A stretch of DNA of 50,324 bases, taken from contig CALBKY010000031.1 of the NCBI GenBank assembly GCA_937896045.1, forward strand, positions 1-50,324, read 5' to 3'. Origin of the DNA: an uncultured Bacteroidales bacterium (GTDB taxonomy: Bacteria; Bacteroidota; Bacteroidia; Bacteroidales; Paludibacteraceae). Each line of letters opens with the position of its first letter. Position 1 is the first letter of the stretch. The position numbers were made by a program, and so were the translations under genes. Positions 1,660 through 45,832 of this stretch are shown piece after piece. The notes beneath the pieces were generated by a model. The model made no database searches, was not told the origin of the DNA, and saw only the letters and a program-made list of their open reading frames with translations.

Positions 1660-1724
1660 TTCCATATAAATACAAAATCCGTATCAAAAGTCGCATGAAA
1701 GCCATTAGGGGGACTTTTCATTGA

Positions 1725-1753
1725 GCCCCTCCCTTGGAGGGGTTGGGGAGGTC
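1725..1753 (+). repeat. REP-like GC hairpin element, family A (CCCCTCC-N3-GGAGGGG plus TTGGGGAGG)
   Basis: Hairpin 1726-1732/1736-1742. The reverse complement matches 18034-18062 at 27 of 29 positions, and both differences are in the loop. Confidence 0.8.
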
Positions 1754-1782
1754 TTCGTGTCTTTGTCGAGTCAAGTGTATGA

Positions 1783-1870
1783 GATTAGTATGTGATTAGT
1801 ATGTGATTAGTATGTGATTAGTATGTGATTAGTATGTGATTCAGCAAGGGATAAGCAAGGGATAATTGAT
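1783..1870 (+). repeat. 11-bp-period tandem array: GATTAGTATGT x5, then (G)GATTCAGCAAG / GGATAAGCAAG / GGATAATTGAT in the same register
   Basis: Read directly: five perfect 11-mers at 1783-1837, then three AGCAAGGGATA-type units that keep the 11-bp phase. Confidence 0.9.
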
Positions 1871-1904
1871 GTTTGTCAAGAGTATAGGACTCCTTTTCGC
1901 TCGG

Positions 1905-1955
1905 GGACGCGGACGCCTCGTCCGCGGTTGTGAATGTGATGCGTCTCGCATCGTC
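1905..1955. repeat. Two REP-like GC hairpins, family B
   Basis: CGCGGACG(1908-1915)/CGTCCGCG(1919-1926) and GATGCG(1938-1943)/CGCATC(1947-1952), followed by GTCAA. Related to the elements at 2784-2804 and 11936-11956. Confidence 0.6.
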
Positions 1956-2109
1956 AAGGTATGGTGTCGGTGGTATATTGGTTACATCAAGAGAATATCA
2001 AATGACATGGCATCCATTGAAAATTAATGATTAATTCGTGGATAATTATATGTTTGTTTGTAGAGAGATTCGATGCCTCGCGTCATTATATTGTAGTATG
2101 ATGGATAAA

Positions 2110-2117
2110 TAGTTTTG
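2110..2117 (+). promoter_or_regulatory. -7 promoter box TAGTTTTG for queE
   Basis: TAnnTTTG match 50 nt upstream of the queE ATG. Confidence 0.5.
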
Positions 2118-2135
2118 CTGTGCAAATACTTTGAT

Positions 2136-2159
2136 ATTAACTATTAATTATTACTTATT
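2136..2159 (+). repeat. AT-rich multi-stop cassette (copy 3)
   Basis: ATTAACTATTAATTATTACTTATT, ending 8 nt before the queE ATG. Confidence 0.8.
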
Positions 2160-2167
2160 GCTTGTAA

Positions 2168-5343: not shown

Positions 5344-5437
5344 ATGCCAAAACACCTCCGAGACCATTGACTACATCCACCGTCACCCTCAGTGGCACCT
5401 CTCCCTCCAAACCCACAAGTATCCCAATATCAGATAA
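5344..5437 (+). pseudogene. Orphan duplicate of the queE 3' end (last ~31 codons plus stop)
   Basis: 5344-5437 aligns with 2666-2758 at about 90% identity. It encodes ..QNTSETIDYIHRHPQWHLSLQTHKYPNIR*, versus queE ..QNTAEVIDYILRHPHWHLSLQTHKYLNIR*. The rest of queE is absent upstream of it. Confidence 0.85.
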
Positions 5438-5468
5438 TAGCCTTGCCGGAATTAGGCGTACTATATGC

Positions 5469-10040: not shown

Positions 10041-11630
10041 ATGAAGTATCAGAAGGAAACGAGTTTTCTCGTAGTATGGGCGTTGCTTACTTGCTTGTTT
10101 TTCAGCCCTGTATGTGTGAAGTTTATCGTAGAGCGTTACGATGAGACATGGTTGAGCACGCTACGCGCGTTGCTGGTGTGCGGAGGATTGTCCGCGTGTA
10201 TCTTATTGGTCAAGAACAAGATAGCGGGAGTGGTGATTGCCTCCTTGTTTGCAGTCATGACATTGGCGGAGTTGGTGATGGTCAACACCTTCCATATCTT
10301 TATGGACATCGACCACTACCTTGCGTTAGTAACCACCACCGCCGAAGAGAGCCGTACGTTTGCCGGTAGCAATCTGCAGGCATTGTGGTACATAGTGCCT
10401 TTGGTGGTGCTGTCTGCGGGTGTGTGCGTCTGGTACGTGAAGATGCCCGCGGTACCGCGCGGATTTCGTTGGAAGACGTGCGGGGTTTGCCTGTTGGTGG
10501 CACTGGTGGGGGTGATGCCCGTGGAGAAGACGGCACAGATTGACAATTTCTATTCGTTCAAGGCGGAGGTGTTCAAGAACACCCTACACCGTCCGCCATT
10601 CAACATCCTGCATCTGACCAAGATAGCGGTGCGCAAGATTCATCGGATGAATCAGACCAACGACTTTGTTTTCCACTCTACCCGCACGCGGAACTTCGCG
10701 CAGAAAGAGACCTACGTGTTGGCAATCGGTGAGTCGGTGCGCTATGCAAACTGCTCATTGAATGGCATTTACCCGCGCGAGACTATGCCATTGGCAGGCA
10801 AACAGAAGAACCTTGTCTTCTTTCACAACTACTACACCGACGGTTGCACTACGTCCATCTCCGTGCCGATGATTGTGACGCGAGCCACTGCCGAGGAGAA
10901 TGATTTGAGTTACACGGAGAAGAGCATCGTGCAGGTGTTCAAAGAGAACGGGTTTACCACTGTGGTCATCAAACGGGGGCTGTTCAACCAGATTTCCAGC
11001 GCGTACCTCTACCAAGGCGTAGATTACACGGTGGACGTGAACTCGGACGCAGAAGTAATGAGCGCAATAGACTCAGTGTCAGCATTATATGACAAGACGT
11101 TTATCATGTTTCAGTTGCTGGGTTCACACTTCTACTACGGCAATTTCCCGAAAGAATTTGGCAAATGGCACCCGAACAACCAGTCGGACAAAGATGTGAA
11201 AAGCGACAGCCTGCTGATAAACTCGTACGACAACACCATTTTGTACACCGATTATCTGCTGAACAATCTGATGGACACCCTCAAAAACCGCGGTATGGCG
11301 GCTCTGTGGTATGTGTCTGACCACGGGCAGACCATCACCGCCACAACGGGGTGGCATGGGACGCTGTGCAGCAAAGATGAGTATCATGTGCCGCTATTCG
11401 TATGGTATTCAGACGAGTATGAGCAGGAAAACAAGGAAAAGACTGCGGCTTTGCGGCAGAATACGCGCGAACCGATGAACGCCGATTGTATATTCTACAC
11501 GCTATGCGGCATGGCAAATATCCAACTCCCGCCGCAGTACCAACACGAGGATTGGGACATCTCGTCAGCGGCTTTTGCACCTCACCCGCGCAAGGTGCTG
11601 ATAAACGGAGAGGCACGCGAGGTGGACTGA
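10041..11630 (+). CDS. Phosphoethanolamine transferase (EptA/sulfatase superfamily)
   Basis: Roughly five N-terminal transmembrane helices, then a sulfatase-type domain (LAIGESVR, YTDGCTTSISVPM, LLGSHFYY, YDNTILYTDY, VSDHGQ). Confidence 0.8.
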   Translation: MKYQKETSFLVVWALLTCLFFSPVCVKFIVERYDETWLSTLRALLVCGGLSACILLVKNKIAGVVIASLFAVMTLAELVMVNTFHIFMDIDHYLALVTTTAEESRTFAGSNLQALWYIVPLVVLSAGVCVWYVKMPAVPRGFRWKTCGVCLLVALVGVMPVEKTAQIDNFYSFKAEVFKNTLHRPPFNILHLTKIAVRKIHRMNQTNDFVFHSTRTRNFAQKETYVLAIGESVRYANCSLNGIYPRETMPLAGKQKNLVFFHNYYTDGCTTSISVPMIVTRATAEENDLSYTEKSIVQVFKENGFTTVVIKRGLFNQISSAYLYQGVDYTVDVNSDAEVMSAIDSVSALYDKTFIMFQLLGSHFYYGNFPKEFGKWHPNNQSDKDVKSDSLLINSYDNTILYTDYLLNNLMDTLKNRGMAALWYVSDHGQTITATTGWHGTLCSKDEYHVPLFVWYSDEYEQENKEKTAALRQNTREPMNADCIFYTLCGMANIQLPPQYQHEDWDISSAAFAPHPRKVLINGEAREVD

Positions 11631-11724
11631 GCGGCAAGGGGCAGTATTCCTATTTGATTTCCAATAACATACTTTAAGAAAAGCAGGTTTCGGCGTGCTG
11701 TATGCTCTCGACAAGAATACTTGA

Positions 11725-11790
11725 ATCACATACTAATCACATACTAATCACATACTAATGACATACTAAAAACATAGTATTAACATAGTT
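11725..11790 (-). repeat. 11-bp-period tandem array ATCACATACTA x3 plus three decaying units, the inverted copy of the 1783-1837 array
   Basis: The reverse complement of ATCACATACTA is TAGTATGTGAT, a rotation of GATTAGTATGT. Both copies end in GTGATTCA. Confidence 0.9.
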
Positions 11791-14582: not shown

Positions 14583-15722
14583 CTAATCGGGCATTTGTCC
14601 GCCTTGCCTGGCAGTGGAGAAATCGGTGGGCGAGCAACCTGTGATGGCGGTGAAATTGCGCCAAGCACTGGTTCGCGAGCGATAGCCTGCGTCGTAGAAG
14701 AGGTTTTGCAGGTTTTGGCGCGGGTCTTGGCAGAGTTGCTGCTGAATATATGCCACGCGGCGACGGTTAATCATATCGGGGTAACTGTCGTAGCCTAAGT
14801 GCTTGATAGCCAACTGGCAATAGCGTCGATTGGTGCCGACAATACGTATCAAATCAGCCTGCGTCAGTTCGGGGTTCTGCCATACGTTGGGGTTTTGCAT
14901 GGCTTCTGTGATGCGGTTTGCCACCTCTTTGATGATTTCCGAGGTCTCTTCTTGCGGTTGATTTACTTCATCAACGATGGGGGCATCGGGTTCTATAACA
15001 GGTGGAGTATATGTGTTATTTACCTTATTATCGGGCACGCGCATGCGTATGGCAAGTTCGATGTATAGAATCAGCCCTGTAAGCACCATATACAGCACCA
15101 TGTGCGCAATCTGCACCCCATGAAGTCGTAATCCGCATCCGCAGAAAAAGGTGACGGTCATGCACAGCGTAATCAGCACAACCGCATGCAGCCAAGGCAA
15201 GGGGGCACTACTATTGCGCCAGTTGTGCTCCATCACCAGCAGCCATATTCCATACGGCACGTAGATGAACGTCAGCAATACGCGCAGCCACACATTAGGT
15301 TCGCCGATATAGTGCATGACCTCCTCCACGGTGTGCAGCGGGCGTATGGAGGATTGTGACCACCACACGATAAGGATGACGGTGGGTATCAGCCAAGGCA
15401 GAAGCATGATGATTGTCCGCTTGGTATTCAACCAATTGGGGCGAAGCATCTCTATAGGATACAAGAGCAGCAGGAAGAAGATGACGAACCCCGCTGAGAT
15501 AATCATAGGGTCCAACAACAAGGGGCCGTTGGTATAGTAGGGAGTGCACAGTTCGATGGCTAATGTGCTGACTGTGGCTACTGCCGATGTCAGAAAGGAT
15601 ATGGCGATAAAAAGGCGTGAGCGGTCGTTTTGTTGCCCATGTTTGGCGAACATAATACATGCCGCTGTGGTCTGCAGCAGTATGTGCAAGGCAAATAGTA
15701 TGAGAATTGCGCTTCCGTTCAT
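14583..15722 (-). CDS. Membrane-embedded AraC-type regulator (polytopic N-terminus plus C-terminal HTH)
   Basis: About 240 aa of hydrophobic helices, then [25 protein letters not shown]...[21 protein letters not shown] chose the start at MNGSAIL (15722), directly after the -7 box. Confidence 0.8.
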
Positions 15723-18172: not shown

Positions 18173-18216
18173 ACCCGCGACAGACCCGCGATAGACCCGC
18201 GATAAACCCGCGACTC
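18173..18216 (+). repeat. 11-bp-period tandem array ACCCGCGAYAG x4
   Basis: ACCCGCGACAG / ACCCGCGATAG / ACCCGCGATAA / ACCCGCGACTC, read directly. Confidence 0.9.
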
Positions 18217-23900: not shown

Positions 23901-23931
23901 GGTGCAGGATATAAATAGGTGTGCTGTGCAT

Positions 23932-24012
23932 ATTAACTATTAATTATTACTTATTACTCAAAGTGGATATGCTACGCATATTAACTATTAACCATTAACT
24001 ATTACTTAATAA
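23932..24012 (+). repeat. Two copies of the AT-rich multi-stop cassette (copies 4 and 5)
   Basis: GCATATTAACTATTAATTATTACTTATTACT (23929-23958) and GCATATTAACTATTAACCATTAACTATTACTTAATAA (23977-24012). The second ends 3 nt before the murQ GTG. Confidence 0.85.
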
Positions 24013-24828: not shown

Positions 24829-24882
24829 GAAATACCCCCTCGTATCTCCCCGAATTTTCGTTCCGATTATGTCGGGTCAAAC

Positions 24883-24926
24883 AGCAAGGGATAAGCAAGG
24901 GATGAGCAAGGGATAGGCAATCCATA
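24883..24926 (+). repeat. 11-bp-period tandem array AGCAAGGGATA x3 (+1 degenerate)
   Basis: AGCAAGGGATA / AGCAAGGGATG / AGCAAGGGATA / GGCAATCCATA, preceded by GTCAAAC as in the copy at 45737. Confidence 0.9.
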
Positions 24927-24960
24927 CCAACCCTAAATATGAGACCCTACCGAGCAAAAT

Positions 24961-25012
24961 TAACGGGAAATAAACGGCAATTAACGGAGCCTTTTTAATG
25001 GGTCTTTAATGG
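24961..25012 (+). repeat. 11-bp-phased TAACGG / TAATGG motif series
   Basis: AACGG at 24962, 24973 and 24983; TAATGG at 24996 and 25007. AATTCGTG repeats at 25036 and 25058 (22-bp spacing). Confidence 0.6.
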
Positions 25013-25193
25013 AGCCAAAAGCCGTTGTTGGAGAAAATTCGTGGTTAATTACACGGTAATTCGTGTTTGACCGGTTCTTCAGAGAATTGCGGTGGGGGCT
25101 TTCAGGCAGATTGGGGCTTGCATTTTGCAGGGTGATGTTGTTAAGTTAGAGTTAATTTTGTTGCCTACTCTTGCACATACGAAAACTTTTTCG

Positions 25194-37902: not shown

Positions 37903-37968
37903 TTATCGAGTCTTTATCGGGTTATTAACGGGTTGTTATCGGGTTATTAACGGGTTGTTCCCGTGAGC
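37903..37968 (+). repeat. 11-bp-period array TTATCGGGTTA / TTAACGGGTTG (22-bp unit x2 plus degenerate flanks)
   Basis: Read directly in the 134-bp gap between the 35399 gene and the first NAGPA gene. Confidence 0.85.
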
Positions 37969-45706: not shown

Positions 45707-45743
45707 TACCCCATGTTCTCTCCAACCGTTCCTTGTGTCAAAC

Positions 45744-45776
45744 AGCAAGGGATACGCAAGGGATGAGCAAGGGATA
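45744..45776 (+). repeat. 11-bp-period tandem array AGCAAGGGATA x3
   Basis: AGCAAGGGATA / CGCAAGGGATG / AGCAAGGGATA, preceded by GTCAAAC. Same family as 24883 and 1841. Confidence 0.9.
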
Positions 45777-45832
45777 CAAAAGCGAAACCGATAAAAAACT
45801 TATAATCTATTAACTCTTAAAAAACAAACATT

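Follow-up and report, generated by a model that had tools for sequence, protein, structure and literature searches.

The window analysed in this study is a stretch of 50,324 nucleotides from an uncultured Bacteroidales bacterium of the Paludibacteraceae, namely contig C31 of a 2.56-Mb genome in 255 contigs (hereafter G000). Its gene content, with a queF-C-D-E operon and a SusC-type locus, is that of a Bacteroidales organism. The spacer between queD and queE (1660-2167, forward strand) is 508 bp long and contains a REP-like hairpin, two short tandem arrays, GC hairpins and a TATTAAC leader. The first array, assigned to family A, lies at 1777-1841 on the forward strand (unit GATTAGTATGT, TRF consensus GTATGTGATTA; 5.9 copies with 98% matches). 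It is coupled via GATTC to a family B array at 1843-1865 on the same strand (unit AGCAAGGGATA; 2.1 copies by TRF). Family A recurs in inverted orientation at 11724-11787 on the reverse strand (5.8 copies, 88% matches by TRF), in a convergent spacer where the array decays toward one end. A family C array occupies 18173-18214 on the forward strand (unit ACCCGCGAYAG, TRF consensus ACCCGCGACAG; 3.8 copies), with a terminator-like hairpin on its upstream side and a TAACTTTG promoter box on its downstream side.

The remaining sites are all on the forward strand. A family B element at 24839-24948 consists of a C-rich leader ending in GTCAAAC, three GCAAGGGAT units and degenerate CCC-type units, and the array within it spans 24883-24920 (AGCAAGGGATA, 3.5 copies by TRF). 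It is followed at 24957-25014 by TAACGG/TAATGG units, with a TRF match at 24957-24977. A 22-bp higher-order repeat built of two 11-mers (TTATCGGGTTA and TTAACGGGTTG) is located at 37914-37959 (2.1 copies, 100% matches by TRF). Finally, a second family B element at 45707-45777, between two genes of the SusC/D locus, has a leader followed by three units at 45745-45777 (3.0 copies by TRF). All of the 11-bp arrays claimed for this window in an earlier note were thus recovered by TRF and sequence inspection. The same note had also described the TAACGG/TAATGG words as phased. The words are indeed present, starting at 24961, 24982, 24996 and 25007, but the resulting spacings of 21, 14 and 11 make the phasing only partial.

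The genome-wide period distribution, on which the earlier note had staked its reading, has a very sharp peak at 11 bp. In the 2.56-Mb genome, TRF at a score of at least 50 reports 189 arrays of period 11, compared with six each of periods 10 and 12; periods 22 and 33 are represented by 50 and 12 arrays, respectively. Intergenic DNA contains 135 exact tandem duplications of length 11, 11 of length 10 and four of length 12, against about one in shuffled sequence. Windows with at least 66% identity at lag 11 cover 3.6% of intergenic DNA and fall in 162 of 1088 spacers, while the corresponding values for lags 10 and 12 are 0.05% and 0.04% of intergenic DNA, and the intergenic autocorrelation peaks at lags 11, 22, 33 and 44. 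The 11-bp periodicity is therefore far above chance. Individual arrays are short, with a median of three units and a maximum of 8.7 (5.9 in a well-assembled relative).

Gene calling with a simple codon-usage model yielded 1952 genes and 84% coding sequence, and only 25 of 371 arrays of period 11, 22 or 33 lie within coding sequence. Among the non-coding arrays, 180 lie in codirectional, 53 in divergent and 26 in convergent spacers, as the lengths of these spacers would predict; promoter and terminator regions are therefore not favoured. Arrays are enriched 5-fold near contig ends (within 100 bp), and contigs from public assemblers have breaks and depth spikes at them, which is the typical behaviour of dispersed repeats. 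They are not an assembly artefact, since the same arrays recur at orthologous loci of independent metagenome-assembled genomes (MAGs).

Gut MAGs from human, goat and roe deer, recorded as uncultured Bacteroidales or Paludibacteraceae, contain identical arrays. High numbers of family A arrays occur only in G000 and its sister species G006, and five further genomes of the genus have few of them or variant forms. Family B reaches high numbers in G000, G107 and G133, and it was detected in none of 77 genomes representing 32 other genera of the family. An excess of periods 11 and 22, partly with different units, is also seen in other species of the genus; for example, 400 kb of G107 contain 45 arrays of period 11, two of period 10 and six of period 12. 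Among 20 other genera of the family (315 kb sampled), nine arrays of period 11 and 10 of period 12 were found, none of them at a score of at least 50, and four other families have 0-1 arrays per 40 kb with no period-11 excess. Hence, the excess is genus-wide and absent from the sampled other genera and families. As a separate observation, one 20-kb sample (L176) of G071, a member of another genus of the family, contains five arrays of period 11, 22 or 33 (within 1476-1561, 10651-10672 and 15379-15503), so the 11-bp trait may exist, in weaker form, outside the genus.

To examine the units, we clustered them at a threshold of two mismatches or fewer. The 284 intergenic period-11 arrays fall into 27 clusters, the largest of which have 145, 62, 25, 10, nine and eight members. 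Three families have spread to tens or hundreds of loci: A (GATTAGTATGT), B (GCAAGGGATNN, then GCAACCCWTNN units) and C (ACCCGCGAYAG), together with relatives one or two substitutions away. In the largest cluster, GATTAGTATGT-type, GGTGATT and CGGGTGATT units are connected by single substitutions. Higher-order units of 22 bp and 33 bp also exist, and each array tends toward uniform units. The 11-bp rule thus mostly reflects amplified, mutationally connected families and only to a small degree new local duplications. This weakens the argument that a period common to different sequences must itself be under selection, as the excess comes from a few amplified, linked families and the peak among single-locus clusters is mild.

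That mild peak bears on the idea that a mutational process makes 11-bp duplications de novo at each site, for instance through misprocessed primer-length flaps or transposon target-site footprints, with a local origin of every array. Single-locus clusters number 18 at period 11, compared with eight at period 10 and 13 at period 12, as such a process would leave. Against it, multi-locus families whose flanks are conserved account for more than 90% of arrays, and identical units occur at more than 100 loci in several species. We consider a local mutational origin very improbable.

The earlier note had further suggested that an 11-bp unit keeps every copy on the same face of the helix, favouring intrinsic curvature or a single protein bound along that face. 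Repeated anisotropy adds up over 2-6 units, and the period is near the helical repeat of negatively supercoiled DNA, so arrays phased in this way could bend DNA and organise the nucleoid or promoters. A genomic periodicity of roughly 11 bp has been described (PMC4132750, PMC3372288). The arrays themselves do not have the corresponding properties. Runs of A4 or T4 occur in only five of 309 units. The phase amplitude of A/T is low inside arrays (0.03-0.26), and no coherence of phase was seen between neighbouring arrays that belong to different families (Rayleigh p 0.55-0.71). The arrays are short, selection for curvature would be expected to give a spread over 10-11 bp rather than strictly 11, and the excess derives from amplified families rather than independent sites. 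Nor do the units share a motif: across 28 unit clusters, no 3- to 5-mer is shared beyond shuffled controls. A common GATWA core for all units seemed plausible by eye and was rejected, as across the 28 independent clusters it is not above shuffles; the information gain from Gibbs sampling (5.49 vs 4.2) is inflated by the inclusion of related units. With no shared motif, A-tracts or phase coherence between arrays, and no preference for promoter-bearing spacers, neither curvature nor a single face-binding protein is supported, and a curvature or supercoil code is a very remote prospect.

Conserved flanks mark longer elements, composed of a leader, the array and a tail, around the arrays. Several flank types are common to family A arrays. 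One subfamily, A1, is represented by 11 copies with a consensus of about 195 bp that includes leader, array and tail. No exact inverted repeat of 7 nt or longer, terminal or otherwise, was found in this consensus, and a classic MITE structure was rejected for A1 on this ground. Five or six A1 copies have a canonical Bacteroidetes TAnnTTTG box with an upstream TTG, 128-165 bp past the array and in front of unrelated genes, and the A1 element may thus carry a promoter or target promoters. The copies on contigs C19, C60, C165, C33 and C208 of G000 end just 5' of a -33 TTG/-7 TAnCTTTGCG promoter; five boxes lie at a nearly constant 133-138 bp from the array, with KdsC-like and PdxJ-like genes among those downstream.

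Family B elements have a C-rich leader (ending in GTCAAACA), 2-4 GCAAGGGATNN units and usually 1-3 GCAACCCWTNN units, and their leader and tail were found at 61 loci. The elements start 38-150 nt past stop codons and also occur between operon genes. In addition, composite blocks of the types A-GATTC-B and C-CCGAGAGAA-B are present at several loci, including in other species. This offers a different view of position 1838, where one family had been thought to pass into another without loss of register. Register is meaningless between unrelated units, and the A-GATTC-B junction is a dispersed, inherited one with at least eight loci.

Comparison of orthologous spacers revealed how these elements come and go. 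The 508-bp queD-queE spacer is found only in G000 and G006; the gap between the two genes is 2-26 bp in G003, G019, G051 and G055. Judging by these lengths, a lineage-specific insertion has opened an operon whose genes are otherwise closely spaced. In G055 (L108, about 1832-1843) the queD stop and queE start codons overlap (TGATG), from which the two genes would be translationally coupled in that genome, and in G000 this junction is opened by 508 bp of repeats. While the que spacer is present in some species and absent in others, with a remodelled junction, the other sites show replacement and not empty sites; neither a clean empty site nor a target duplication was seen in the compared orthologous spacers. 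Two smaller differences were observed within the que spacer: the REP-like hairpin at 1725-1753 (CCCCTCC...GGAGGGG type) is missing at the orthologous place in G006 (L105), and G006 has a 44-bp nested insertion within the GC hairpin near window position 1905-1930.

Gain or loss of repeats in whole 11-bp steps, as anticipated in the earlier note, is borne out between related species. The family A array of the que spacer has 5.9 units in G000 and about 3.9 in G006, and the adjoining B array has two and three, respectively. Within the periodic zone of the murQ-susC spacer, which holds the family B element at 24839-24948, these two genomes differ by indels of 22 and 11 bp and by no others, and the TAACGG/TAATGG zone has one additional 11-bp unit in G006. 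A gap of 11 nt represents a further unit-step change between species.

Replacement is equally evident. In G051, the murQ-susC spacer carries a 9-bp array plus a different 11-bp array, and therefore the same site is filled by different tandem arrays in different species. The G051 spacer (L135, about 2235-2400) has about 12 copies of the 9-bp unit CCTGACAAT, followed by three of CACCCTCCCCG. The family B array at 45745 is identical in G107, while a REP-like hairpin takes its place in G006, and the spacer orthologous to 37914-37959 contains a different 11-bp array in G107. The occurrence of different arrays at one orthologous spacer would also suit the local mutational origin considered above, but a 9-bp array in G051 does not fit a process that makes 11-bp duplications.

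Over 10 orthologous spacers, G000 and G107 are 88% identical in coding sequence, 72% in non-array spacer and 76% in arrays. Pooled in this way, arrays are no better conserved than the remaining spacer (75.6% vs 72.4%). Their identity is, however, bimodal: retained arrays are 93-100% identical, and the remainder have been replaced. The positions at which units vary are the same in both species, namely positions 10-11 and the GGG triplet in family B and position 9 in family C.

Such conservation would be expected of protein-binding platforms, in which the units of each family are sites, arranged head to tail, for a protein whose molecules bind cooperatively, one to each helical turn. Cooperative binding of this head-to-tail, once-per-turn kind is known from the pho boxes of PhoB/PhoP, CarH operators and the ParR-parC iterons. 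Several known regulators have 11-bp head-to-tail spacing. Units with a conserved core and 1-3 variable positions, the retention of arrays at 93-100% in spacers that are otherwise 72% identical, and the persistence of exact A and B units between species whose coding DNA is only about 88% identical all speak for sites that are read by a protein. On the other hand, the arrays are found at hundreds of loci and do not favour spacers that contain promoters, families that bloom in some species are missing from close relatives, and unrelated arrays or hairpins can replace an array at the same site. Compared with operators and iterons, the cores are conserved within each family and none is common to all sites, and placement is not confined to promoters, origins or centromeres and follows spacer length across the three spacer types. 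Since no core is common to the families, many separate proteins would be needed. Of the cooperative protein envisaged in the earlier note, the single-protein form is thus not supported, whereas family-specific binding is possible and is hinted at by the position-specific conservation. From the sequence comparisons, we regard protein platforms as an unlikely explanation, though one of some weight.

A bolder version would make the arrays a working recognition system, in which the 8-9-bp core of each family is read once per turn by a dedicated DNA- or RNA-binding factor and the arrays act as phase-locked platforms. If so, hundreds of arrays would set the organisation of the chromosome or its transcripts, and gain or loss of units would tune occupancy. 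The conserved cores, the variable positions common to two species and the near-perfect identity of retained orthologous arrays would be compatible with it, and we assign this possibility a low probability.

The orientation of the arrays raises the alternative that they act as RNA. In codirectional spacers, arrays are co-oriented with genes at ratios of 23:4 for family A, 13:0 for family B and 6:7 for family C, and this bias tracks gene direction and not local GC skew. A replication-driven bias was rejected, as local GC skew does not track gene strand and the arrays follow genes. We also considered a general filter against C-rich, Rho-loading sense RNA, which fits families A and B; it was discarded because the other skewed families point in the opposite direction (10:15).

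Transcribed in operons or at 3' ends, the arrays could be structured or protein-binding RNAs, for example stabilising 3' hairpins, and a period of 11 nt would correspond to one turn of an A-form helix (11 bp). Besides the orientation of A and B and the location of B elements past stop codons and within operons, the junction between GGG-type and CCC-type B units has the potential to form a stem of up to 7 bp (GCAAGGG with CCCTTGC), and the sense strand of a family A array has a predicted folding energy of -25.5 kcal/mol, compared with -1.2 for the antisense strand. In the same vein, two species differ at one orthologous locus by an exchange of GGG and CCC triplets that affects all four units. 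This array lies at about 11200-11250 of C63 in G000 and at 97565-97594 of C2 in G107; its triplets are CCC, GGG, GGG and CCG in one species and GGG, CCC, CCC and TGG in the other, with unchanged linkers. The swap may be a compensatory change that keeps pairing between neighbouring units, or a conversion of unit variants, and it is a single case.

Several findings weigh against an RNA-level role. Fold z-scores are weak or nil (0.01, -2.97 and -1.87), and no Rfam covariance model matched any part of the window at its gathering score. Orientation is unbiased in family C and in the minor families, many CCC-type units leave the stem incomplete, and arrays occur in divergent and convergent spacers as well. 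The ANGGA-like motif of family B units suggested a CsrA sponge of the CsrB/RsmZ type; this was rejected, as the CsrA domain (PF02599) is absent from five genomes of the genus. Overall, RNA-level elements appear improbable on the basis of these predictions.

Taken together, the dispersed 11-bp minisatellite elements form a genuine superfamily that is specific to this lineage. The arrays probably constitute a genus-wide superfamily of short, dispersed, non-coding intergenic elements whose period is mainly inherited and not imposed by the helix at each site. Each element has a leader, a minisatellite that usually counts 2-6 units of 11 bp, and a tail. The comparisons above show that a few families have multiplied to tens or hundreds of loci, that elements are inserted, lost or replaced in spacers, including those within operons, and that arrays change in length by whole units, probably through replication slippage. 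The common period would be copied along with the families, in the manner of a satellite-DNA library. The species-specific blooms count in favour of such inherited, amplified families.

Most copies are probably tolerated spacer DNA. Some may nevertheless affect their neighbours, such as the A1 copies that end just 5' of canonical Bacteroidetes promoters and the hairpin-capable B copies in sense orientation just past stop codons. Because two species agree both in their unit cores and in which positions vary, the sequences are likely to be recognised by something, which could be the copying machinery or a host DNA- or RNA-binding factor. Several findings count against this reading. First, the comparisons yielded no copying mechanism, with no terminal inverted repeats in the A1 consensus, no clean empty site or target duplication in the compared spacers and no Y1/RAYT transposase in five genomes. 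Second, at least three large families with no detectable sequence relationship all have units of exactly 11 bp, which common descent can account for only through an ancestor that is no longer traceable. Third, retained arrays are more conserved than a purely neutral element would be, though in the pooled comparison arrays do not exceed the remaining spacer.

The arrays have the features of minisatellites, with head-to-tail units of at least about 10 bp without spacers and whole-unit changes between relatives. The earlier note did not recognise them as a described class, and no description of 11-bp tandem arrays in Bacteroidales was found in the literature searched; the class is real and genome-wide. 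The closest described element is BrickBuilt of Porphyromonas gingivalis, a minisatellite-bearing intergenic MITE with a 23-nt unit, a leader, a tail and promoter activity (PMC4596501). Both belong to the order Bacteroidales and combine a leader, a spacer-less tandem array and a tail with a limited host range. The promoter elements near or within BrickBuilt have a parallel in the -7 box 128-165 bp downstream of the array in A1 copies. BrickBuilt is strictly intergenic, and the arrays here are almost all intergenic as well. It is a single family present in 19 copies per genome, built on a 23-nt unit and ending in small inverted repeats, in contrast to the elements of this study, which have an 11-bp unit, fall into at least 27 unit clusters, reach a density of about 120 arrays per Mb and, in A1, lack exact terminal inverted repeats.

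The STRR heptamers of heterocystous cyanobacteria are the nearest case of many sequences with one unit length. They comprise several heptamer families, are dispersed in intergenic DNA and are lineage-specific, and all of these features are shared by the present arrays. The unit here is 11 bp instead of 7 bp, and the phylum is different. G000 does possess a separate 7-bp class, TATTAAC, located just upstream of start codons.

Like the REP/BIME and REPIN-RAYT sequences of Proteobacteria, the arrays occur as hundreds of short intergenic copies, often within operons or past stop codons, and form mosaics of modules; they adjoin real REP-like hairpins, and family B itself has hairpin potential. Unlike REP/BIME, most units are direct repeats and not palindromes. 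The Y1/RAYT transposase (PF01797) was found in none of five genomes of the genus, three of them 100% complete, while control genomes were matched, and a REPIN-RAYT reading was rejected on this basis.

The pho boxes of PhoB/PhoP, CarH operators and ParR-parC of plasmid R1 resemble the arrays in being 11-bp direct repeats with a conserved core and few free positions. Each of those systems uses only a few sites, for regulation or partition, that are served by a single cognate protein, whereas the present arrays occupy hundreds of loci in every spacer type, with many unrelated units and species-specific blooms. Eukaryotic satellite-DNA libraries provide a further parallel, in that unit variants are amplified unequally in related species and the period is kept while the sequence drifts. 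Even the higher-order repeats of such DNA have counterparts in the 22-bp and 33-bp units and in the tendency of arrays toward uniform units. In contrast to eukaryotic satellites, the arrays are tiny (2-9 units) and spread over hundreds of intergenic sites of a 2.5-Mb genome, without long blocks.

If the inherited-period reading holds, an uncultured genus of gut and rumen Bacteroidales would possess a bacterial counterpart of satellite DNA, in which short arrays, numbering about 120 per Mb and all built on a unit of exactly 11 bp, account for several percent of intergenic DNA. The arrays would explain the fragmented assembly of these genomes and would offer ready markers for strain typing. Spacers, even those within operons, would be rebuilt from repeat modules able to bring promoters or hairpins to their neighbours. 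Identification of what recognises the cores and copies the elements could uncover a new mobilisation mechanism or nucleic-acid-binding factor.

Two other kinds of repeat were noticed in the window. The TATTAAC/TATTACT arrays of 7 bp lie at 1290-1315, 2135-2163 and 23931-24004, immediately 5' of the queD, queE and murQ start codons. Genome-wide, 72 intergenic arrays of period 7 form one cluster, with the multiples 14 and 21 also seen, and these arrays may serve as an A/U-rich translation leader. Moreover, positions 2666-2760 and 5345-5439 are 89% identical across about 95 bp; the former is the 3' end of queE, and the latter lies directly past the gene for a secreted protein of 734 amino acids.
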